This document shows, one piece after another, positions 23,312-35,503 of a stretch of DNA of 64,000 nt. Each line of letters begins with the position of its first letter. Within the stretch, counting starts at the first letter, position 1. A program made the translations under genes and the position numbers. The notes below the pieces were generated by a model, which did no database searches, was not told the origin of the DNA, and saw only the letters and a program-made list of their open reading frames with translations. The DNA comes from Thermoproteota archaeon (GTDB lineage: Archaea; Korarchaeota; Korarchaeia; Korarchaeales; Korarchaeaceae). Location of the stretch: assembly GCA_026986575.1 (NCBI GenBank), contig JALSOH010000009.1:160001-224000 (forward strand), read 5' to 3'.

Positions 23312-24172
23312 TCAGCGGGAGGTTAAGCGGTCCAGCGCCTCCAGATCAACGTACTTAGAGAGCTCCTCGTCCATGGAAAGCATGTGGGCCTCTACCAGTT
23401 GAGCGACCTTCCTGCCCAGGGGTGTGAGCTTGTAGTAAACCCCCCTCTTCGTGTCAGGCCCCTTCTCCTTCACCAAGAGCTCACCGTCCTCGAAGTAACG
23501 CTTGATGTAGTAATCCAAACTTACGATCTTGGACCTCTCGTCCTCTATTCCCTTATCTCCCCTCTTCCTCATCTTGTTCCTGATCTTCACATACTTTATT
23601 AGGGTTTGGGGGGATGCGAGCACGCCAGCCTGTTCGAGCCTGCCGACAGCGTAAAGTATGGCGAGGGAGACCTCGTTCAGCTTCCAAGTCGGGTAGGCTA
23701 TCAATTCCCTGTACCCGGCTTCGTCCAGTTCTATGGCCCTAGCGTTGAGGTAGAGAGCCAAGTGAAAGAGAGGGATCTTGAGGAATCCAGAGCATACGAC
23801 TAAGATCCTCAGCTTCCTCTGACCTCCTGAGGAGTTGATCTTCCTTATCTTCTTGGCCAGCCCCACCATAGAGGATATCACAGTGAGTTGATCCAGCGAG
23901 GGAAGTTCCTCCTCCACGACGCTTTCGGTGGAGTTTATCAGCTCGAGCTTATTCCGGAACTCCTCGTAACCCTCGCCTATCAACCCATCCTTGATCAGGA
24001 AGGCGAACCTGATCATCCTGAGGTCATCGGATACTAGTCTCTCGAACATCCTGAAATCTGTGGAGGTAGGGGCGACCAGGAGATAAAAGGAATCGGAAAG
24101 ATCGATGGCCTTCTCAGCGCTCCTGCTTAGGACCCTCTCCAGCCTCTCTAGTCCGGAGCCCCCTACCCCCAT
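23312..24172 (-). CDS. Putative transcriptional regulator, CARF-like Rossmann domain plus winged HTH (Csa3/DUF6293-like)
   Basis: Alpha/beta N-terminal domain ending ILVVCSGFLKIPLFHLALY; P...L.E....IL linker; wing GELLVKEKG...YYKLTPLGRK. Confidence 0.6.
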   Translation of the reverse strand: MGVGGSGLERLERVLSRSAEKAIDLSDSFYLLVAPTSTDFRMFERLVSDDLRMIRFAFLIKDGLIGEGYEEFRNKLELINSTESVVEEELPSLDQLTVISSMVGLAKKIRKINSSGGQRKLRILVVCSGFLKIPLFHLALYLNARAIELDEAGYRELIAYPTWKLNEVSLAILYAVGRLEQAGVLASPQTLIKYVKIRNKMRKRGDKGIEDERSKIVSLDYYIKRYFEDGELLVKEKGPDTKRGVYYKLTPLGRKVAQLVEAHMLSMDEELSKYVDLEALDRLTSR

Positions 24173-24197: not shown

Positions 24198-24366
24198 CAA
24201 CTTATAACCTTTATGATTTCAGCAAACGGCTTTTACATGAAAACCCATTTCTTATATGTGTAGAGCGGTTTTGAATACAAAATTTATTCTTACCCAATGC
24301 GAAATTACTGTAATAGTACCACTTAATGGTTATAAAGGAAAACTTATGCATCACATTGATAACGCC

Positions 24367-25425
24367 ATGTCAAACCGATCGGGCAGGAGGTACAGGCTGG
24401 CTGGCGAGGAGCTCGATCCAATGATTGGACCCTATGGGAGGTATCACGAACTTCTGAGAAGTATAGCGTCGGATCTCGCCAAGAACCTCTCCAACATCAT
24501 CAAGAGAGTCGATGAAATCGCCCCAAAGCTTAGAGACGTGCTTCCCATCTTCGAGTTAAGGGGGGAAGATGCCTCTTCGGTGAGGATAGCCGCCGTGGAC
24601 GCCGGGGCTAACGGGAAGGACTTGATCTTGGGTTATCAGCCAGTGAGCGTAGCAGTAGGTGCGGTGTTCATCGGGACAATGAAGGACGGCGATCCGGTTG
24701 TGGCTACGGTGAAGCCCCCTAAATCCTACTTCGATGACGAGGAGGGCTCCAAATTTTCCTCCCTTCTGGGCTACTACCTCATGTATCGGCTGGGCATAAC
24801 CCTCTTGGAGAGATCAGATGTCCTCATCTTGGACGGTCCCCTCTTCCTCCCTAGGAATTACTACGGGCCTAGGGGGAGGGCCCACGCCAGGGCCTATTAC
24901 GAGGTCTACGATGCGACCCTCCGCTCCCTTGGGGAGCTCCTGAGGACAGCTAGGTCCATGGAGAAGATCGTGGTGGGGATAGTCAAGAGGATCAGGAGCT
25001 CGTACATCTCTGGGTGGTTTGGGTTAAGCGGCTACCCTGACTCGATGCTCGCTTCCAGCCTGCTCAGAGAGGGCGAGGCCTTGGGGCCAATTCCCATAAA
25101 CCCTAGGTGGGAGGATGTCATCACCTGGCTGAACGACACGAGGCCCTACAGGCCTTGGTCCGTGTTCTTCAAGAGGAGCTCCAAACCCACGAGGTTGGAC
25201 CTCCCGGAGTACGCACTCGACGACTCTGAATGGTTGGCTAACGTCCTCTATAGTGTTTCCGAGCCTGTTACGGGCCTTCCCATCCCGCTGATAGCTGTGG
25301 ACAGGCTCTCTAAACTGACCGACAGGCAGGCCTCCCTCATCTACAGGATGATGCTGTCTGAGATGGGCTGCAGGGACCCGGACAGGGTGGCGATGTTTTC
25401 CCTTCAGAGGGGTGAGAGCGATTGA
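24367..25425 (+). CDS. nurA: NurA family nuclease
   Basis: IAAVDAG, LILDGPL, GIVKR, GLPIPL.AVD..SK motifs; overlaps the herA start; probable ATG 24367. Confidence 0.85.
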   Translation: MSNRSGRRYRLAGEELDPMIGPYGRYHELLRSIASDLAKNLSNIIKRVDEIAPKLRDVLPIFELRGEDASSVRIAAVDAGANGKDLILGYQPVSVAVGAVFIGTMKDGDPVVATVKPPKSYFDDEEGSKFSSLLGYYLMYRLGITLLERSDVLILDGPLFLPRNYYGPRGRAHARAYYEVYDATLRSLGELLRTARSMEKIVVGIVKRIRSSYISGWFGLSGYPDSMLASSLLREGEALGPIPINPRWEDVITWLNDTRPYRPWSVFFKRSSKPTRLDLPEYALDDSEWLANVLYSVSEPVTGLPIPLIAVDRLSKLTDRQASLIYRMMLSEMGCRDPDRVAMFSLQRGESD

Positions 25426-27977
25426 ATGATGTGGTCGGCCACGTGATCTCCCGCTCCACCCCAAAGAGGATCATGTTCGTGGTTCTAAAGGGGTCTAGGG
25501 TTGGAATGGGGGATTTTTACGTGGTCAACCATCCTTGGAAGGGAGTTCCCGTCTTCCTCAGGGTCAGGGAAATCCAGACCATGAATGAGGAGGTGGACCT
25601 GGGAAGGACAGGTCTCCTAGCCAGCAGCTCGGGACTCATCTCGGACTACAGCAGTGAGCTAGAGTACGTGATAGTGGAGAGTGAGGTCTTGGGGTACAGG
25701 GATCCGGAGAGTGGTAGGATAAGGGGGCTGGAAGCTCCTCCATCCACCCTCTCACCCGTCAGGCGTCCCTCTAAGTCTGATCTGGTCTCCTTCCTTGGCC
25801 AAGGGGATGGCAGGGGCCTCCCCGTGAGGATAGGGAGGGTGAAGGGAACGTCGGTCCCGTTCCATCTGGACCTAGCCTCAGTGGCTAGGGGCCACATGTT
25901 CGTGACTGGGATGACTAGGAGCGGGAAGAGCGTTACCGAGGACACGATCGTCCTCCTCTTCAACAGGGAGAAAGGGAAGTACTTCTTAGGCCCCATAAGG
26001 AAGTTTGTGGATCCCTACCTTCCAAGGAGGGCTAGGAGGGGGATAGTGGACATGAGGGGGTGGGGATGGGAGACCCTCACCTTGGGCCCCGGGATGAGGC
26101 CAGAGTGGAGACCCATAGCGGGCGCCCTGAGGCATGTGAACGATAAGGAGATATACGAGATCGAGACGGCCACTGGGAGGAAGATCAGGGTCACTGAGGA
26201 CCATAGCCTGCTCGTCACCCCTGACGGGACTAGCGTCGTACCGGTCAAGCCCAAGACGCTTATGGCCATGAGGAGCAAGTACCTGATAGTGCCTAGGGGG
26301 GCTCCTTTACCGAAGCCCAAGTCCACCAGCTTGTACATGGACAGGCTCATAGGCATTGCCCTAGCCTCGGGGGTCCCCTACTTCGAGGGAGGGATCCTTA
26401 TAATGGATCCATCGCCTGCAGACGTGAGAGTAGCATGTATGGAGGCAGGAGTGGACTGCGAGAGCATGGGCAGGGCCGCGATACGCGCTAGGTCGGAGCT
26501 TCTCATGGACGCGGTGGCAGAGGGGCTGGCTTCGATCCTCAATCTCCCGATGAGTCACCAGCACTTCACCGGTTCCTTCCTGTATCCCCTGCCCAGCGCT
26601 CTCAAGGAGTACCTCTACAGGAGGCTCCTTCCCTACATGAACGGGAAGTCATTGGTGATGATGGAGAGCGAGGACAGGATCCTCTCGGCCTCCATACTGC
26701 TCTCATTGGTTGGGGTGACGACCCTAGAGATGTGCGAGAGGGGACTGAAGCTGGATCCAGCCACCGCCGCCATGCTCAGGGACAAGCTGGAGATGCCGCA
26801 TATGTTCGTGGAGGAGATGGATGGAGCTCTAACGCTCGGCGATCCGAGGAGGGAGACCAAGGTAGCTGAGGGAGTCATCCAGAAGGGATGGGTGGATTTG
26901 GAGAGGGTGGTCAGGGTCGAGAGGCTCTACTCGAGGCAGGAGTTCGTTTACGATCTGGATGTGCCGGGAGCCCAGAACTTCCTAGCCAACGGGATCTTCG
27001 CCCACAACAGCAGTTTCGTCTCCAGCCTCATCTCGAAGTCATCGCGGCTCCATCCTAGGCCCGGTTTCCTTGTGCTGGACAGGAGGGGGGAGTACGTCGG
27101 ACTTGCGAAGAGAGGAGCCGTGATTTACGACTACACAGCATTCCTCCCCAAGCACGGCCTAGCTAGGCCTGCTGACGTGGCGAGGAGGTTGGGATACAGG
27201 CAGGGGACTCTCTCCCACAGGCTAGTGCTCTCGGCAGCCGAGGAGGTCATGAGTGAGGGCGAGGAGCCGGACCTCCAATCCCTGATCAGGGCGCTCAGGA
27301 GGTTAGCGAGGGAGATGAGGGTCAAATCCTCCCTCGTGGCTGAAGTAGAGGCGAGGTTGAGGAGGGAGTTCCCCAACTTGGTAGCTGGGGGCGGGGGCCT
27401 CGACGTGGTCGAGGAGGTGAGGAAGAACCCCCTCGTCGTAGTGGACTTCTCCTCAGACACGAGGTACGAGGACCAATTCTATGCGGTCAGGGAGATGGTA
27501 AGGAGGCTCACCAATTACGCCGTGTCTAGGAGGAACGAGGGGGATTTCGCCCTCATCGTCGTCGTAGAGGAAGCCCAGTATCTGGTTCCGGAGAGGGGTT
27601 ACACCATAGTCGGGGATCCCTACGAGGCAGGGGCTGCTCAGGCCATAATAGAGGCGATAAGCCAGGCCGGCGGCTACAATTTGGGCTTCGTGGTGGTGAC
27701 CCAGAGGCCGGCATACGTGAGCAAGAGCGTTATAAGCCAGACCAACACGGTGGCGGCCTTCAGGTTGAGGAACGGGAACGATCAGGAGGCCATCATGAAG
27801 TACACTGAGGCGGAGGATCTCTCCAATTACTTGGCGATGCTCTCCGACCACGAAGCCTTGCTATGGGGCATGGCCAGTCCCATACCCTTCCCGGTACAGG
27901 TGGAGGTTGAAGTAGTGAGCCTGCCGGCGAAGGCCTCTAGGCCGCCAGAGGAGGCTTGGGCGCGCATGCGCGGATAA
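25422..27977 (+). CDS. herA: HerA-like ATPase (HAS barrel plus DUF87) interrupted by an intein
   Basis: VG.V HAS barrel, H.FVTGMTRSGK/S Walker A, VVVEEAQ Walker B, TQRP, SQ.NT; extein about 491 aa. Confidence 0.88.
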   Translation: MNDVVGHVISRSTPKRIMFVVLKGSRVGMGDFYVVNHPWKGVPVFLRVREIQTMNEEVDLGRTGLLASSSGLISDYSSELEYVIVESEVLGYRDPESGRIRGLEAPPSTLSPVRRPSKSDLVSFLGQGDGRGLPVRIGRVKGTSVPFHLDLASVARGHMFVTGMTRSGKSVTEDTIVLLFNREKGKYFLGPIRKFVDPYLPRRARRGIVDMRGWGWETLTLGPGMRPEWRPIAGALRHVNDKEIYEIETATGRKIRVTEDHSLLVTPDGTSVVPVKPKTLMAMRSKYLIVPRGAPLPKPKSTSLYMDRLIGIALASGVPYFEGGILIMDPSPADVRVACMEAGVDCESMGRAAIRARSELLMDAVAEGLASILNLPMSHQHFTGSFLYPLPSALKEYLYRRLLPYMNGKSLVMMESEDRILSASILLSLVGVTTLEMCERGLKLDPATAAMLRDKLEMPHMFVEEMDGALTLGDPRRETKVAEGVIQKGWVDLERVVRVERLYSRQEFVYDLDVPGAQNFLANGIFAHNSSFVSSLISKSSRLHPRPGFLVLDRRGEYVGLAKRGAVIYDYTAFLPKHGLARPADVARRLGYRQGTLSHRLVLSAAEEVMSEGEEPDLQSLIRALRRLAREMRVKSSLVAEVEARLRREFPNLVAGGGGLDVVEEVRKNPLVVVDFSSDTRYEDQFYAVREMVRRLTNYAVSRRNEGDFALIVVVEEAQYLVPERGYTIVGDPYEAGAAQAIIEAISQAGGYNLGFVVVTQRPAYVSKSVISQTNTVAAFRLRNGNDQEAIMKYTEAEDLSNYLAMLSDHEALLWGMASPIPFPVQVEVEVVSLPAKASRPPEEAWARMRG
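25929..27008 (+). mobile_element. Intein (360 aa) with a degenerate LAGLIDADG region
   Basis: Block A SVTEDT, block B GRKIRVTEDHSL, block F VYDLDVPGAQNFLANG, block G IFAHN followed by Ser; inserted at Walker A GK/S. Confidence 0.93.
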
Positions 27978-28023
27978 AATTTTAACATGCTCACTTTTTA
28001 TAGAACGGAACGGCCTAAGCCCT

Positions 28024-29544
28024 ATGAGTTCGTTCAACCCCATTCCAGAGGGGTCGAGGCGGGTCAGGATATTCGACTCGACCCTCAGCCAGGGGGAGCT
28101 GGTCCCGGGAATATCCTTCTCAACCCAAGCCAAGATGGAGATAGCCATGAACCTCGACGCCCTCGGCGTTGATGTGATAGAGGCTGGATTCCCCGCTGCC
28201 TCCGAGGGAGAGAGAAAGGCTGTTTCCGAAGTGGTCAAGGCCGTTAAGCGCATATCCAGAGCTGGCTTCTCCGCAGAGATATGCGCCTTGGCTAGGGCCC
28301 TCCCAACAGATGTGGAGCTTGCCTTGGAGACTGAGGCGGACTGCGTTCACATCTTCATGCCAGCAAGCAAGCTCCACTTAGAGAAGAGGCTTAGAATGAG
28401 CTATGAGGAGGCCTTAAATCACGTGATTGACTCGGTGAGCAAGGCAAAGTCGGGAGGAGCCGTGGTGGAGTTCACCGCCGAGGACGCGTCCAGGGCCGAT
28501 CCGGACTTCCTTTGGAGGCTCTGCAAGAGTGCCGAGGAGGCTGGGGCCGACAGGGTAAATCTCACCGACTCTGTTGGCGCGCTTACGCCAGAGGGAGCCG
28601 CTAGCATGGTTAGAGAGGCAAAGAAGCACCTCACCAAGCCCGTAAGCGTGGCCTTCTTCAACGATCTGGGAATGGCCACTGCAAATTCCGTGGCCGCGGT
28701 CCTCGCTGGGGCCGATCAGGTTCACACTTCCGTCAATGGGCTCGGACCCAAGGCGGGATTGGCCCCCTTGGAGCAGGTCGCAGTCGCTCTCAACGTGCTC
28801 GCGAAGGTAGAGACGGGCGTGCAGCTTCAGCTCCTGTCTGAGGTGAGTGAGCTTGTGGAGAGATTGAGCGGAGTGCCTATATACGAGATCGCCCCTATAG
28901 TCGGTCCCCTCACTTACACTTACGAGGCAGGCGTGCATGTCCACGCGATATCGGTTGACCCCTCCACATACGAGCTCGTCCCTCCGGAGAGGGTCGGTAG
29001 GAGGAGGCGTTTCATCGTGGGCAAACTGTCAGGCAGGACTGCCGTGGTGCAGACCCTCAGGGAGATGGGGTATGAGGTGGATGAGGCCAAGGTGGAGGAG
29101 ATACTCGCTAAGGTGAAGGAGCTGGCCGATGAAGGCGTGAGGATAACCGAGGGCGTCTTCAGGTCCATAGTGGAGGAAGTGCTCGGCGAGGGCGGGGGCA
29201 AGTGGTTCGAGGTCCTCGAATGGATGGTCGTCACTGGGAGCGGCGTGACCCCCACGGCCCAAGTGAGGGCGAGGGTAGGAGACAGGGAGCTCAGGTCCGC
29301 GTCCTTCGGCGTCGGTCCCGTGGATGCCCTAGCGAATACCATGAGATCTTTGGAGGGGGTTCCGGACTTCAAGCTCAGGAGGTTCAGGTTGAGGGCCATT
29401 TCATCCGGCACCGACGCGATAGGCGAGGTGCTGATAAGGGTTCTCGGACCTAAAGGTGAGGTGGAAGCGAGCGGGACCAGTCCAGACATACTCGAGGCCT
29501 CACTCAAGGCCTTGGAGGATTCGATAAACAAGATAAAGGGGTGA
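28024..29544 (+). CDS. LeuA/CimA-like (isopropylmalate/citramalate synthase) homologue with degenerate active site
   Basis: Clear family frame (IFD.TL..GE, GVDVIEAGFP, AEDA.R, NDLG.A.ANS, G.GPVDA, GTDA, DI.EAS) but RDGEQ>SQGEL, HCH>AFF, GERAGN>GPKAGL. Confidence 0.85.
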   Translation: MSSFNPIPEGSRRVRIFDSTLSQGELVPGISFSTQAKMEIAMNLDALGVDVIEAGFPAASEGERKAVSEVVKAVKRISRAGFSAEICALARALPTDVELALETEADCVHIFMPASKLHLEKRLRMSYEEALNHVIDSVSKAKSGGAVVEFTAEDASRADPDFLWRLCKSAEEAGADRVNLTDSVGALTPEGAASMVREAKKHLTKPVSVAFFNDLGMATANSVAAVLAGADQVHTSVNGLGPKAGLAPLEQVAVALNVLAKVETGVQLQLLSEVSELVERLSGVPIYEIAPIVGPLTYTYEAGVHVHAISVDPSTYELVPPERVGRRRRFIVGKLSGRTAVVQTLREMGYEVDEAKVEEILAKVKELADEGVRITEGVFRSIVEEVLGEGGGKWFEVLEWMVVTGSGVTPTAQVRARVGDRELRSASFGVGPVDALANTMRSLEGVPDFKLRRFRLRAISSGTDAIGEVLIRVLGPKGEVEASGTSPDILEASLKALEDSINKIKG

Positions 29545-29583
29545 ACCCCTCCTCTCCCCCTCCTCCCTCCTTATCCATCCCCG

Positions 29584-30672
29584 CTACCTCACGAGCCCCC
29601 TCCTCACCGCCTCCACCAGCAAGGGGTCAGCCAGCTCGTACAGCCCATCTCTTTTCTCGACGAATCCGTACTCCACGAGCTCTCTCAGATATGTGGTGAT
29701 CTGTTTATCGCTTATCCTAGTTCCCAACGCTATGGTCAGTCCCCTCTTGACGTCTGACCATCTGGAGGGATTCATCAGGATTCTGAGGACCTCCACATAC
29801 CTCTTCCTCGCGATACCCCTGATGGACAGGAAATTCTCCAGCTCCCGAGCAGCCAGGGAAGCTCCTTCATAGATAGTCCTTTCCAGGGCATCCTCGTGCT
29901 CCATCCTCATCCGGTGATAACCGTAGTAGGTGAGCCAACCCACGATCCCATCAAGCTTGTCTACAGCCTCCTCGAGCTCCCTCAGAGGAGGGCTTATCCC
30001 TACCTGCTCGAAACCCTTTGCGAGGAAGTCCAAGGATCTCTCCCGAGGGAACTTCTTGAGCTGAATCTCCGCATAGGCCCTACCGAACAGTGGGGAGGAT
30101 GGATCCTCCCTGCCCAGCAGGCGATCGAGGAGGCCTACTTCAGATCCGGCCAGCAATAGTTTGACCCTCCCCTCATAGTCGTAGATGTGCGCTAGCAGCT
30201 CCGAGAAACCCCTGATGAGCCTGAGGTCCTGCGCTTCATCGAACGCCATCACCAAGTAACTCCCCTCAGACTCGGCCCACTCATTAAGGGCACCTACCAA
30301 TCTTCCAACAGTTGACAGGGACTTTCTCGATATTTCTATGCGGAACCCGGCGATTTCTACCTCCTTTATCTTAGAAAGGAATTTCTTGATCCCCCTTTCC
30401 TGCTCCAAGAGTCTACTCAATTCATCCGACAGGTAAGAGTAGATGTCCTCAGGTGAGATAGATCCGCCGAGCCGCAGATCGATGAGCACGTAAGGTAGAT
30501 CTAGCTCTGATAGAGTGACTCTCACGAGAGACGATTTTCCAGTCCTCCTGATGCCCTTCACCACGGCCATCCTCGAGATAGGATCAAGGAGCTCGGATAT
30601 GAGCGAATCCAGCTCCGCTTCCATGTCGTAGAAATCATCCCTCTTAGATTTCACTTCGAGCGAGAAGTACAA
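29584..30672 (-). CDS. Archaeal AAA ATPase (ATPase_2 family) with C-terminal wHTH
   Basis: DFYD.E.EL, G.RRTGKSSL, FDEAQ, GSEVGLL, PLFGR, DG..GWL, Y.LADPL. Confidence 0.9.
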   Translation of the reverse strand: MYFSLEVKSKRDDFYDMEAELDSLISELLDPISRMAVVKGIRRTGKSSLVRVTLSELDLPYVLIDLRLGGSISPEDIYSYLSDELSRLLEQERGIKKFLSKIKEVEIAGFRIEISRKSLSTVGRLVGALNEWAESEGSYLVMAFDEAQDLRLIRGFSELLAHIYDYEGRVKLLLAGSEVGLLDRLLGREDPSSPLFGRAYAEIQLKKFPRERSLDFLAKGFEQVGISPPLRELEEAVDKLDGIVGWLTYYGYHRMRMEHEDALERTIYEGASLAARELENFLSIRGIARKRYVEVLRILMNPSRWSDVKRGLTIALGTRISDKQITTYLRELVEYGFVEKRDGLYELADPLLVEAVRRGLVR

Positions 30673-30783
30673 CTTACACCCCCTGTAAGTAACTTGCACC
30701 CCGTGTTATTAAATGATGGTGCGATTGAGGATGAAGGATATAAGAGAAAGAGAAAGTGCCTGAAAAAGGAGGTTGAGGGTGGA

Positions 30784-31842
30784 TCAGAGCTTCCAGGGGA
30801 ACTCGACGCCTACCTGATCGGCTACATCCTTCATGTTGGCCATTACCTTCTTGTAGATGGGTATACCTTCCTTCAGTCTCTTCTGGGTGGTGAGCCAGCT
30901 CTTCTCGCCGTGCACCCATATCTTCTTGAAGTCCGGATGGAGCGGAGCTGACTTCAACTTCTGTATCATGTAGTCCATCCTCTCCTTGAACTCGTCCACG
31001 GGCATGAAGTTCTCTATATTGATGGCCATGAAGAAGTGCCCCACATTGCTCGGCCCGGGGCCCTCGGTCTGGCCCACGTCCTTCAGCAGGGCCGCGCCGC
31101 TCAGCACTCCAGAGAAGAGCTCGACCATAACTGCGAGACCATAACCCTTGTGGCCACCGAAGAGCTCACCAAGGCCTCCCAGCGGTAGCAAAGCTCCTTC
31201 CTTCCTTATGACCATGGGATCGTCGGTGAGCTTGCCTTGAGCATCAATACCCCATCCCAGAGGGGCCTTCTTGCCCATCCTCGTGTACACTTCCATTTTC
31301 CCTATCGGCACAATGGACGTGGCCATATCTAGCACCCACGGAGGCGGAGTCTTCGTCGGAGCAGCGACCGCTATGGGGTTAGTCCCTATCCACTTGCCTA
31401 AGGCACCGGTGTGCGCCACCAAGGGCCTTGCGTTGGTCATCGTGACGCCTATCATGTCGTGGTCTAGGGCCATCATCGCGTAGTAGCCGGCGATGCCGAA
31501 GTGGTTGCTCAGCCTCACGGTCACGAAACCTATACCGGCCTCCTTCGCCTTCTTTATCGCCAGCTCCATGGCCTTCCTACCTACTACCTGACCCAGTCCG
31601 GAGTCGCCGTCGATCAGGGCGTAGGCAGGACCCTCTCTCACGATCTGTATGTTCGGGTTGGTCTTCACGGCTCCATTCACTATTCCATCAACGTACCTCT
31701 TCAGCCTTGCGACCCCGTGGGAGCTTATACCCCTCAGATCGGCGGTAACTAGGTTATCAGCGGTCCAACGGGCATGCTCCTCGGGCACACCAAGTTTAAC
31801 GAAGACGGAGGTGACAAAATCCATCAGATCCTCATACTTCAC
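30784..31842 (-). CDS. Ldh_2 family (type 2 malate/L-lactate/sulfolactate) dehydrogenase
   Basis: ADLRG..SHG..RL, SNHFG.AGYY, GTNPIA, LDMATS, GGHKGYGL; true start may be up to about 50 nt upstream. Confidence 0.92.
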   Translation of the reverse strand: MKYEDLMDFVTSVFVKLGVPEEHARWTADNLVTADLRGISSHGVARLKRYVDGIVNGAVKTNPNIQIVREGPAYALIDGDSGLGQVVGRKAMELAIKKAKEAGIGFVTVRLSNHFGIAGYYAMMALDHDMIGVTMTNARPLVAHTGALGKWIGTNPIAVAAPTKTPPPWVLDMATSIVPIGKMEVYTRMGKKAPLGWGIDAQGKLTDDPMVIRKEGALLPLGGLGELFGGHKGYGLAVMVELFSGVLSGAALLKDVGQTEGPGPSNVGHFFMAINIENFMPVDEFKERMDYMIQKLKSAPLHPDFKKIWVHGEKSWLTTQKRLKEGIPIYKKVMANMKDVADQVGVEFPWKL

Positions 31843-32485
31843 AATATAGTAGTCTTCAGGGGGAACAGGTGGTGACTTATCATAGGACAGGTAGGATCAC
31901 CCGTGTTATATGGCTGCATAATATCCTAAAAAAGTTGGCATCCAATGGCTGATGTAGGGGGCGGGCTTACGATTAAACGGAAAAAGCATAGGCATAGCGT
32001 TCCAGCAGATAAATGGAATTACCTCCCCTCACATTCAATATCATTTCCAGTTAGATCCCGACCTAAATTTATATTATGAGATGCTATGTCAGGGTGTAAT
32101 TTGAATCTTTTTTATCATTTTTAAAAAGACTGCTCGCAATAAAAGCGATGTTGAAAGCAAGCGCGCCTAAAACAGAGCTTCTCCTGACGCTTGCCGCAGT
32201 TTCACCCATGTTTCTGAGCTTGTTGATCAAGCTAAAGCCAAACGGTGTGGAGCTACACCCTGAATGGATTTTGCTGTTCCCGATAACGTTGTACCTGCCC
32301 AACATGAACCTAGAGGGATTACACAGGATATTCGATATCAGATGGTGCTGGAGGTCAAGGTCATCTTGAGCGAGAAGACCGACCTTTTACCATCCTCATG
32401 GCCATCGCGCGCTAATCTACTCCTTGCTGTTGCTTGGTGGCACATAGAACCTGCTAGCGCTCCATAGCAACATGTGAGGAGGTGA

Positions 32486-33278: not shown

Positions 33279-33515
33279 ATGACAGTAATTACCGTTAGGA
33301 TTGATGATGAGACCAAGAGGATGATGGAGCATATCAGAATAAACTGGAGTGAGTTCATAAGGAGCGCTATAAGGAGTAAGATAATGGAAGAGAGGAGGAG
33401 GAATCTAGCTAAGGCCGTGCTAATAACGGAGAGAGTGAGGAAGAGGAGCAGGGGAGAGGCAAAGGCTGAAGAGATAGTGAGGAGGTTCAGGGATGAGCGA
33501 GGAGGTAGTACTTGA
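33279..33515 (+). CDS. vapB: VapB-type RHH antitoxin
   Basis: VITVRIDDE...INWSEFIR.AI; overlaps the PIN gene. Confidence 0.88.
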   Translation: MTVITVRIDDETKRMMEHIRINWSEFIRSAIRSKIMEERRRNLAKAVLITERVRKRSRGEAKAEEIVRRFRDERGGST

Positions 33516-33945
33516 CGCAAGCGTCGTGGTGAAGTGGTTCGTGGAGGAAGAAGGGTCTAAGGAAGCCTTAGAGATCAGGGATAGGTACGTGGAAGGAGAA
33601 ATACGGATAATCGCTCCTGAGCTCATCACGTACGAGGTGCTGAACGCCCTCTACTACAAGAGGCTCTTCTCGGAAGATGAGCTAAAACTGATTTCCGAGG
33701 CTCTGGAGGCGTACTCCTTCTCCCTTCATCCTTTAAGGGGGGAGTACGCCAAGAAAGTTGTGGAGGTTTCGTACGAGAACGATATAACCCTGTACGATGC
33801 CTCGTACGTGGCCTTAGCGATCGTCAGGGATACTTTCGCCTATACAGCTGATGAGAAGCTCATACGAAAGTTGGGAAGGGAATATAGAAGGTACGTTAGG
33901 AGATTGGGGGGTGATGCTAGCAAACAGAGATGGAGAACTGTTTAA
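33493..33945 (+). CDS. vapC: VapC PIN-domain toxin
   Basis: VVLDASVVVKW, YEVLNAL, YDASYVALA, YTAD. Confidence 0.92.
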   Translation: MSEEVVLDASVVVKWFVEEEGSKEALEIRDRYVEGEIRIIAPELITYEVLNALYYKRLFSEDELKLISEALEAYSFSLHPLRGEYAKKVVEVSYENDITLYDASYVALAIVRDTFAYTADEKLIRKLGREYRRYVRRLGGDASKQRWRTV

Positions 33946-34266: not shown

Positions 34267-34878
34267 CTACCTAATTCGACTTAGCCAGAGGTCTACCTCC
34301 TCCCCTACCTTCTTACGCCCCTTAACGCGCCTCTCCTCCATCTCGCGAAGGTATTCCCTTAATCTACTCACATCAACCATTTCGAGCAGCCGGGGTATGA
34401 TCTCGTCCCTCGCTGGGTACCCGAGATAAATCAGATCGATCAAGGTCTTCTCGGGATCAGAAACCCTTATCCATTCGCCTATCTCGTCCAGATACTTGTA
34501 CTCATACCCGAAGTACATCTTACCCGAGATCCTCCTGAGCACCACCTTGAAACCAGCTACTTGCCTGATGCCCCACCTCACAGTCTTGGACACGTTTGGA
34601 GAGAGCACGGTCACGGCCGTCACCTGGTTCCATGCCCCGTGGAGGAACGCCGCCGAGCCTAATCCAATGTAGGCCCTTGGAATAGCCTTTACAATCATGT
34701 AGGGGGACTTCTTAAAGGTGTAAACTCCCCTCAACAGCTCGACTATCTGCCCTTTCCTTCTCAAATTGTGGATGAGTAGCTTAGCGTAGTCCCTCCCCAC
34801 GACTGCCTCGACAGATCTGAACGTGAAGATTGATGACCTTCTAAGTCTTTCGATGAATTCTGAGTACTTAGTGGGCAA
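34267..34878 (-). CDS. AbiEi-type antitoxin (type IV TA)
   Basis: wHTH-like N-terminus (L.RKG.I..L.RGVY), YIG..SA...HG, VSDPEKTLID. Confidence 0.85.
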   Translation of the reverse strand: MPTKYSEFIERLRRSSIFTFRSVEAVVGRDYAKLLIHNLRRKGQIVELLRGVYTFKKSPYMIVKAIPRAYIGLGSAAFLHGAWNQVTAVTVLSPNVSKTVRWGIRQVAGFKVVLRRISGKMYFGYEYKYLDEIGEWIRVSDPEKTLIDLIYLGYPARDEIIPRLLEMVDVSRLREYLREMEERRVKGRKKVGEEVDLWLSRIR

Positions 34879-35503
34879 ATCTCTCCACCTTCCTGACGAC
34901 TGTCTCGAAACTTGGAGGCCTTCCCATCAGGACGATCTCCCTCAATACGGGATAATCGCGTGGAGGTTCCCTTAATAGGGGAAGGATGTGCCTGAGCAGG
35001 TCCTTCACGCTAGCATCCTCGCATAGATCCAAGAGGTAGTATATGTCATATAGATCTCTGGCTTTCCTCCTATTCGCATAGGCATGCACCTTCTCCTCCA
35101 GAAGCGAGCAGGGCGTGAGGGTCTTGACAACGACGGTGCTACCGTCAATCAACCAAAAGTCCCCTTCGATTACTTCTCTCTCCTCGAACATGGGGGAGGC
35201 CTCAAGTTCAACCTCAGCTTCATTGCTGATCCTCAGGTAAAGGACCCTAGAGGGTGTGAGCTTCATCCGAGTGATGTTCAAAGTTGGAGAGAGTATGCTG
35301 GGGATCCTCTCAACGTCTTGGCAGTATATATCCACATCGTACGAGAACCTCTTTCCGCCGTAGATCCTCCATATGGCCGTACCCCCATGAATCACGAAGT
35401 CAACGCCTCTCAACAGTTCCAGTAACAGGACATCCTGCACCTCTGCTATTCTAAGCATGTTGCCCCTCAACACCTTCATTAGAGGGATTTTCCTATACAT
35501 CAC
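34868..35503 (-). CDS. AbiEii-type nucleotidyltransferase toxin
   Basis: HGGTAI.R.Y...RFS.DVD, EK..A...R.KARDLYD. Confidence 0.9.
   Translation of the reverse strand: MMYRKIPLMKVLRGNMLRIAEVQDVLLLELLRGVDFVIHGGTAIWRIYGGKRFSYDVDIYCQDVERIPSILSPTLNITRMKLTPSRVLYLRISNEAEVELEASPMFEEREVIEGDFWLIDGSTVVVKTLTPCSLLEEKVHAYANRRKARDLYDIYYLLDLCEDASVKDLLRHILPLLREPPRDYPVLREIVLMGRPPSFETVVRKVERFAH

Follow-up and report, generated by a model that had tools for sequence, protein, structure and literature searches.

A LeuA-derived protein with an erased active site is conserved in a Korarchaeum-like genus of archaea and is probably a pseudoenzyme

We analysed a window of 64,000 nucleotides (contig JALSOH010000009.1, positions 160,001-224,000) from a korarchaeal genome of 1.91 Mb, designated G000, and coordinates are given as window positions unless another contig is named. 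The forward strand of the window carries a complete open reading frame of 506 amino acids (28024..29544) for P0001, a degenerate homologue of the synthases LeuA and CimA, as judged from the frame itself, Pfam and its orthologues. The frame begins with ATG and has no internal stops, and the opposite strand is closed by many stops. Three Pfam domains were recovered, each with a score exceeding the Pfam cut-off, namely HMGL-like (residues 13-278, 237.8 bits), HCS_D2 (residues 292-370, 82.1 bits) and LeuA_dimer (residues 374-504, 94.4 bits), and they make up the complete LeuA architecture of barrel, linker and regulatory domain. The TIM-barrel (HMGL-like) domain occupies 28060..28857 (+ strand) and, according to Pfam, an AlphaFold2 (AF2) model and structural superposition, retains its scaffold and has lost its metal and substrate ligands. 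The LeuA_dimer regulatory domain, assigned from Pfam and alignment, occupies 29143..29535 (+ strand). P0001 falls under every curated NCBIfam cut-off for isopropylmalate synthase (IPMS), citramalate synthase and homocitrate synthase; its best score was 511.4 against a cut-off of 517 (NF002085), and the others were far lower.

Three genes of the HMGL type were found in G000, encoding P0001, P0002 and P0003. P0002 is an intact LeuA paralogue of 527 amino acids, 50% identical to P0001 over 493 residues, in which RDGEQ, HCH and GERAGN are all present; it exceeds the NCBIfam IPMS cut-offs (664.1 against 517 and 556.7 against 532) and has its own His, Tyr and regulatory domain. Its gene heads a leuA-leuC-leuD-leuB operon on a contig other than that of P0001. 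A first-pass annotation of the window, made from the DNA alone, had raised the question of whether an intact leuA or cimA exists elsewhere in the genome, and P0002 answers it for leuA. P0003 is a divergent homocitrate-synthase-like protein of 434 amino acids with an intact active site, whose best NCBIfam score was 180.6 bits against a cut-off of 462.9; its length and the stretch covered by its NCBIfam matches indicate that it has no LeuA_dimer domain. Together with an aconitase-like gene and an Iso_dh gene, the P0003 gene forms a second synthase-hydrolyase-dehydrogenase module (G000 contig C4, 781445-785386), and a module of this type was present in 5/5 genomes checked, including the genome G020 that is discussed below.

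P0001 was aligned residue by residue to the solved structures 6KTQ, 6E1J and 3RMJ and to its own paralogue P0002. In these alignments S22-Q23-G24-E25-L26 replaces R-D-G-E-Q (28087..28101, + strand), so that the Arg, the metal-binding Asp and the Gln are gone, and A210-F211-F212 replaces the metal-binding H-x-H (28651..28659, + strand). At the GERAGN loop, G241-P242-K243-A-G-L246 replaces G-E-R-A-G-N (28744..28761, + strand), as also seen in the clade alignment described below. A second group of changes lies in the linker (accessory subdomain I) segment of residues 284-319 (28873..28980, + strand), which by alignment and dimer model reaches the partner subunit: N is replaced by L296, A by T297, H by Y300 and P by L318. 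Within this segment H305, Y316 and E317 are retained, and E288, L296, T297, Y300, V304 and L318 are clade-specific. Other retained features are EAGVH with H305, TYE with Y316, GVGPVDA at residues 429-435, AISSGTDA and DILEAS, together with E25, D154, R157, D182, N213 and D214. The first-pass annotation had described an intact frame of 506 amino acids with SQGEL for RDGEQ, AFF for HxH and GPKAGL for GERAGN, and every one of these substitutions was recovered against 6KTQ, 6E1J, 3RMJ and P0002; the linker His, the Tyr and the regulatory-domain motifs that it listed as kept (H305, Y316, GVGPVDA, AISSGTDA and DILEAS) are likewise all present.

Published mutagenesis bears directly on these positions. 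In the methylthioalkylmalate (MAM) synthase 6E1J, according to the extracts of the source, Asp90, His288 and His290 are the ligands of an essential metal, the 2-oxoacid is held by Arg89 and Thr257, Glu227, His388 and Tyr399 are required for catalysis, and the mutants R89A/K/Q and Q93A/N have no activity; the active-site Arg is called invariant and essential across the superfamily in the same extracts (PMC11532901). Furthermore, R80A and R80K are listed in a review table, itself seen as an extract, as abolishing the activity of Mycobacterium tuberculosis IPMS (PMC10464499). At the sites of MAM synthase Arg89, Asp90, Gln93, His288 and His290, P0001 carries Ser, Gln, Leu, Ala and Phe, and its E153, H305 and Y316 are the equivalents of Glu227, His388 and Tyr399. 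On this comparison P0001 cannot have a canonical LeuA/CimA active site. Because the Arg, the three metal ligands and the GERAGN loop are lost, no Claisen condensation of a 2-oxoacid with acetyl-CoA is expected to take place in its own barrel.

The substitutions are not private to one genome. A protein search of 5.8 billion proteins found 18 further clusters with 60-96% identity to P0001, after which the next matches fall sharply to 50%. With P0001 they form a degenerate clade of 19 sequences (59-96% identity), all with active-site losses, which we compared with 56 canonical sequences in an alignment of 75. Nine columns that are invariant in 56/56 canonical sequences are replaced in 19/19 clade members, namely the R, the D, the first His, the E, R and N of GERAGN, and the N, A and first H of ENAFxHESGIH, and three more (the Q of GEQ, the S of EFSAED and the P of YEP) are replaced in 17/19. 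The Arg and Asp sites of RDGxQ hold S/T and Q/L in 19/19 clade members and R and D in 56/56 canonical sequences. Of the HxH pair, the first His is absent in 19/19 and the second is retained in only 3/19. E153, H305 and Y316, the equivalents of the catalytic Glu, the general-base His and the stacking Tyr, are invariant in 19/19. New residues have also become fixed: F211, P242, K243, P248, E288, Y300, V304 and W164 are invariant in 19/19 and rare or absent in the 56 canonical sequences, P242 and K243 both occupying the site of the GERAGN loop. The old pocket positions vary within the clade and are mostly hydrophobic (Q/L at 23, L/M/Q at 26, F/Y/S/H at 212 and L/M/I/V at 246), which is as expected after loss of function. 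Taken together in the alignment, the combined substitutions are far beyond what chance would produce. A profile built from the 19 sequences was run against 1.84 billion representatives and recovered one clade representative (940 bits), followed by a next match at 439.5 bits; with this single representative the clade is narrow. Among the other 149 representatives nearest the clade profile, 108 carry the full canonical ten-residue pattern. Source names within the clade include 'Candidatus Korarchaeum sp.', 'alpha-isopropylmalate synthase regulatory domain-containing protein' and '2-isopropylmalate synthase'.

In the regulatory domain, all 75 sequences agree at G429, G431, P432, D434, G462, D488, A496 and N502, and GVGPVDA, G462, A465 and D488-I489 of P0001 are conserved as in real enzymes. 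Clade-specific residues in this domain are S461, G475, P476, E479 and E498.

A maximum-likelihood tree of the 75 sequences (quick search, supports from the Shimodaira-Hasegawa-like approximate likelihood-ratio test, SH-aLRT) recovered the degenerate clade as monophyletic (SH-aLRT 100) and grouped it with four korarchaeal intact LeuA sequences against 52 others (SH-aLRT 99). The stem of the degenerate clade is long (0.95 against 0.36). This topology fits a duplication of leuA in this lineage that would have been followed by rapid change. P0011 and P0012, which are of the G020 type, form the earliest branch of the clade and still have the Gln and the second His, a retention that suggests stepwise erosion of the site.

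Forty genomes of the class were searched for the degenerate and the intact gene. The degenerate gene occurred in 18/20 other genomes of the window's Korarchaeum-like genus and in 0/19 genomes of six other genera of the class. The intact paralogue was likewise found in 18/20 other genomes of the genus, and both copies were found in 17/20. The two genomes of the genus in which the degenerate gene was not detected are 70% and 83% complete; for the latter, G027, we did not accept a loss, given its completeness and the fact that the syntenic Ldh_2 gene was also not found. One further genome, G022, has two degenerate copies (82% and 78% identical to P0001) at loci L010 and L025 on separate contigs; its contamination is 7%, and a mixed bin is more probable here than a duplication. 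The degenerate gene never lies within a leu operon.

Selection on the two copies was compared using codon alignments of 19 degenerate and 15 intact genes, with pairwise Nei-Gojobori estimates of nonsynonymous (dN) and synonymous (dS) divergence for the same genome pairs; in 36 pairs dS was below 2 for both genes. For pairs with dS up to about 1.1, dN/dS was 0.026-0.085 for the degenerate gene and 0.030-0.086 for the intact paralogue. As these ranges are equal, a reading of the degenerate copy as a relaxed pseudogene is refuted, and on these estimates purifying selection on the degenerate gene equals that on the enzyme. In the deepest pairs dN was about 0.32 for the degenerate and about 0.18 for the intact gene. 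Identities across the deepest split, taken over 36 genome pairs, were 0.62 (degenerate) against 0.82 (intact) for the barrel, 0.64 against 0.76 for the linker and 0.61 against 0.665 for the regulatory domain. Judged by these identities, the degenerate barrel is no longer under the extra constraint of catalysis, and the regulatory domain is about as constrained as that of the real enzyme. The first-pass annotation had proposed a targeted loss under selection and had set against it the chance that the substitutions are unique to one genome under relaxed selection; the proposal holds up, as the losses are conserved throughout the clade (19/19) and dN/dS is low (0.03-0.09), the same as for the catalytic paralogue.

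G020, a genome estimated to be 99% complete in 40 contigs, carries an orthologue 67% identical to P0001 with TLGEQ, TFH and GPKAGI at the three active-site motifs. Protein and Pfam searches of this genome found no intact LeuA. Furthermore, no leu-type (third) Iso_dh, no LeuC-type operon and no match to ILVD_EDD (IlvD) or KARI_C (IlvC) were found in G020, and in the other four genomes tested leuA, leuBCD, ilvC and ilvD are present at four unlinked loci. The genes flanking the leu operon of another genome, G011, are both present in G020, each with at least 4.7 kb of leu-free DNA on the operon side. G020 therefore appears to have lost leuA, leuBCD, ilvC and ilvD and yet to have retained the dead copy, and its type of degenerate protein exists in three intact variants of 86-95% identity. 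Because the dead copy persists there without LeuA, an obligate heterodimer with LeuA is unlikely. The degenerate gene of G020 stands tail to tail with an aldehyde:ferredoxin oxidoreductase gene and is not beside herA.

The AF2 model of P0001 had a mean predicted local distance difference test score (pLDDT) of 90 and a predicted template-modelling score of 0.81, with most barrel blocks at pLDDT 91-98 and lower values of 73 and 87 near residues 71-90. The model superposes on structures of LeuA and homocitrate synthase (for 3EWB, root-mean-square deviation 1.4 Å over 282 columns), and the scaffold is, by this prediction, intact. The regulatory domain alone gave only chance-level matches against PDB sequences (E about 0.5). 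In IPMS the accessory domain of one chain sits on the barrel of the other, with His379 and Tyr410 lying in subdomain I (PMC9860122). We modelled a heterodimer of P0002 (residues 27-521) and P0001 (residues 11-505), which scored 0.85 against 0.00 for the best of 3 controls, the mark for a pass being met by 116/157 solved complexes and 2/215 mismatched pairs. At least 88% of contacts were common to the runs, and the partner had a pLDDT of 84 or more. Structures of LeuA homodimers exist (1SR9, 3RMJ and others), and the pass may stem from resemblance to these; the model shows that a LeuA-like interface persists rather than that these two chains bind, and homodimer and heterodimer are inseparable in it. 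In the predicted interface P0001 residues 284-305 and 314-319 lie on the active-site loops of P0002 (41-45, 198-201, 228-232 and 254-260), and P0001 residues 430-434, 460-465 and 487-491 are within it. The loop of P0001 at 239-245 also lies in the modelled subunit interface, as do most of the clade-specific invariant residues (P242, K243, E288, L296, Y300 and V304).

We conclude that P0001 is very probably a pseudoenzyme kept by selection and unable to catalyse condensation in its own barrel, an inactivity deduced from the residues lost. This reading as a pseudoenzyme, one derived from an allosteric biosynthetic enzyme, has good support in sequence, phylogeny and published mutagenesis. As a mechanism we rank first a dimeric ligand sensor that would act independently of LeuA through the retained regulatory domain, to which we give a little less than an even chance; the explanation as a whole, a selected pseudoenzyme that would probably be such an amino-acid-sensing dimer, seems to us evenly poised. 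In the proposed history, leuA would have been duplicated in the ancestor of one Korarchaeum-like genus, and the copy would have kept the domain-swapped LeuA fold, with TIM barrel, accessory linker and C-terminal amino-acid-binding regulatory domain, while losing the Arg, the three metal ligands and the GERAGN loop. Given that the copy persists without the pathway and that its regulatory domain is constrained and its barrel relaxed, its main job may be non-catalytic and independent of LeuA. The P0001 dimer would bind leucine or a related branched-chain metabolite in its regulatory domain and pass the signal to a putative partner; mixed dimers of P0001 and LeuA may also form where both are present. 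A more specific version is doubtful: a LeuA-derived receptor, in which the leucine feedback domain of IPMS would serve a stand-alone dimer as a free-standing sensor of leucine, a branched-chain 2-oxoacid or an acyl-CoA, controlling for example amino-acid catabolism or uptake through a putative partner, and which a peptide-fermenting archaeon might retain even after branched-chain amino acid synthesis had been given up. The first-pass annotation had offered a branched-chain amino acid sensor and a non-catalytic subunit of a heterodimeric synthase as alternatives. The sensor, with its putative ligand binding, is the better fit, and the subunit proved geometrically possible in the model and not necessary, given G020, the lack of a shared operon and the altered linker.

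Several observations weigh against the sensor. A heterodimer with a catalytic subunit is the simpler explanation for the retention of E153, H305 and Y316, the degenerate and intact copies co-occur in 17/20 other genomes of the genus, and the heterodimer model with P0002 passes. Within the regulatory domain, site 461 is S/T/L in the clade and Gly in 93% of the real enzymes, and such clade-specific changes, also including G475, P476 and E479, could alter or abolish leucine binding. Polar residues that have become invariant close to the former site (K243, E288 and Y300) could serve a new chemistry. Further, the gene absences in G020 rest on one draft assembly, and we infer the sensor role, the ligand, the partner and the output alike.

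The rival that survives best, which we consider unlikely, would make P0001 a non-catalytic subunit of a heterodimeric IPMS, lending His305 and Tyr316 to P0002 and altering its activity or feedback, or else acting as a poison subunit. Besides the co-occurrence of the two copies in 17/20 genomes and the model score of 0.85 with the P0001 linker on the active-site loops of P0002, this would make sense of residues that are kept in 19/19 clade members and whose equivalents are, in the extracts cited above, catalytically required (PMC11532901), in an architecture in which each accessory domain rests on the barrel of the opposite chain (PMC9860122); the yeast pair Leu4-Leu9, in the excerpted source, shows that IPMS paralogues can mix (PMC7418496). 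Nevertheless, the model pass possibly comes from likeness to solved homodimers, G020 keeps the dead copy without LeuA or the remaining pathway, and the P0001 and P0002 genes, which lie on separate contigs, never share an operon, the degenerate gene having a TATA-like box of its own. The segment to be donated would itself be abnormal, with three linker residues that are invariant in 56/56 real enzymes replaced in 19/19, and P0002, with its own His, Tyr and regulatory domain, needs no helper. The heterodimer is possible and not required, and the putative sensor is favoured.

A second rival, a neo-functionalised enzyme performing a metal-independent reaction by means of the newly fixed K243, E288, Y300 and W164, appears improbable. 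It would account for the eight residues newly invariant in 19/19 (F211, P242, K243, P248, E288, Y300, V304 and W164), for purifying selection as strong as that on an enzyme and for the retention of E25, E153, D154, R157, D182, N213 and D214. On the other hand, the former pocket positions 23, 26, 212 and 246 vary in the clade, the barrel is less constrained than that of the paralogue (0.62 against 0.82 identity), most of the new invariant residues are predicted at the modelled interface and not in a pocket, and the gene neighbours hint at no pathway. We regard as very improbable an arrangement like that of HisZ and HisG in which P0001 would be the regulatory partner of P0003: a P0003-type gene with aconitase-like and Iso_dh genes is indeed present in 5/5 genomes, G020 included, and P0003 has no LeuA_dimer domain, but P0001 and P0003 are only 25% identical over 292 residues, which makes a common dimer interface doubtful, P0003 has its own His and Tyr, and the two genes are unlinked. 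Finally, a decaying copy under relaxed selection, as the lost active-site residues and the long stem branch might suggest, has a negligible chance of being right, and the pseudogene reading was rejected, since the frame is intact in every orthologue recovered, whether complete or cut by a contig end (18/20 other genomes of the genus), dN/dS is 0.03-0.09, the replacement residues are themselves conserved and the fold is confidently predicted.

The sensor reading can be set beside known systems. The archaeal short form of LeuA/CimA (P0002; 6KTQ, 6E1J, 3RMJ and 1SR9) has the same three-domain architecture as P0001, which keeps the general-base His, the stacking Tyr, the Glu and the regulatory-domain motifs. 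P0001 differs from it in having lost the Arg, the metal-binding Asp, both His of HxH, the E, R and N of GERAGN and three invariant linker residues, in scoring below all NCBIfam cut-offs and in lying outside the leu operon. By descent and architecture P0001 belongs to the LeuA/CimA family; lacking the defining Arg, Asp and HxH and falling under the curated cut-offs, it merits neither the label isopropylmalate synthase nor the label citramalate synthase. Within the family, the yeast pair Leu4-Leu9 comes closest; there, according to the excerpted source, paralogous IPMS chains form mixed dimers with altered leucine sensitivity (PMC7418496); both of those chains are catalytic in that account, whereas P0001 has no active site and persists without a live chain in G020. 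Another likeness is HisZ, described in the extracts of two sources as an inactive paralogue of histidyl-tRNA synthetase (HisRS) that regulates the ATP phosphoribosyltransferase HisG (PMC9734150, PMC10795190). There, as those extracts present it, a paralogue of a biosynthetic enzyme lost catalysis and became an allosteric subunit sensing the end product, and in its proposed role P0001 most resembles paralogue-derived regulators of this kind. The partner of HisZ, however, is in the same extracts an unrelated short HisG without a regulatory domain, whereas LeuA, the obvious partner of P0001, has its own. A literature search, with subscription journals outside its coverage, found no paper describing a non-catalytic LeuA.

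Among the 149 other representatives nearest the clade profile are five LeuA-like proteins of other lineages (P0177, P0195, P0202, P0209 and P0263) in which the Arg has been lost independently; the metal-binding Asp is missing from four of the five, and most lack additional ligands. P0177, P0195, P0209 and P0263 are full-length, and P0202 (485 amino acids) has no regulatory domain in the alignment. P0195 represents a 21-member cluster named 2-isopropylmalate synthase from Alphaproteobacteria/Rhodospirillaceae, and P0209 a 12-member cluster. Judged from these sequences, the LeuA active site appears to have been erased on several occasions while the rest of the protein was kept.

Directly 5' of the P0001 gene and on the same strand lies a herA-like gene (25422-27977, + strand) with a DUF87/HerA central domain and an intein (Intein_splicing) at residues 236-529 of 851, an intein-bearing form that is conserved across the genus. 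A gene for a NurA-domain protein (24256-25425) precedes it with a 4-nt overlap, and a gene of 286 codons (23312-24172, - strand) diverges from nurA-herA; its product had no Pfam match at E <=0.001, and it is conserved in 4/4 longer relative loci. herA is directly 5' of the degenerate gene on the same strand in 13/14 orthologue loci, the G020 locus being different. Inside the 46-nt gap between herA and the P0001 gene, about 25 nt 5' of the ATG, we noted by eye a TATA-box-like element (TTTTTATA, 27995..28002, + strand), and an A/T-rich box lies 20-35 nt 5' of the start in 15/15 orthologue loci, again as judged by eye with no shuffle control. This suggests that the P0001 gene may have its own promoter and a leaderless or near-leaderless mRNA. 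For 25400-31900, a look-up of expression data listed four DNA runs and no RNA run. A functional link to nurA-herA was considered and rejected; as all loci are from one genus and the TATA-like box is found everywhere, we treated the arrangement as inherited gene order and not as an operon. The gene neighbours of the degenerate gene hinted at no pathway and included no acyl-CoA ligase gene. On the 3' side, an archaeal ATPase_2/AAA gene with an MCM_C-type winged helix (29584-30699, - strand) sits between the P0001 gene and the Ldh_2 gene. This insertion is confined to the window's subgroup, being intact at locus L005, present as remnants at L009 and missing from that place in distant genomes. A few kb 3' of P0001 are also a PIN-domain gene (33493-33945, + strand) and an AbiEi/AbiEii toxin-antitoxin-type pair (34267-34878 and 34868-35503, both - strand).

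At present, databases label the degenerate clade 2-isopropylmalate synthase or leave it unnamed, so reconstructions of Korarchaeum pathways would count a non-enzyme, and in a lineage of the G020 type the name would wrongly imply a leucine pathway. The occurrence of a live and a dead copy in one genome could offer a clean system for studying how the allosteric signal is transmitted in the domain-swapped IPMS dimer. If P0001 is a sensor, it would provide a heat-stable module for binding amino acids that nature has derived from an allosteric enzyme, and a parallel in archaea to HisZ, in which an enzyme has become a regulator. If the receptor reading is true, then, together with the independent dead LeuA copies elsewhere, it would imply that IPMS has been turned into an amino-acid receptor time and again.

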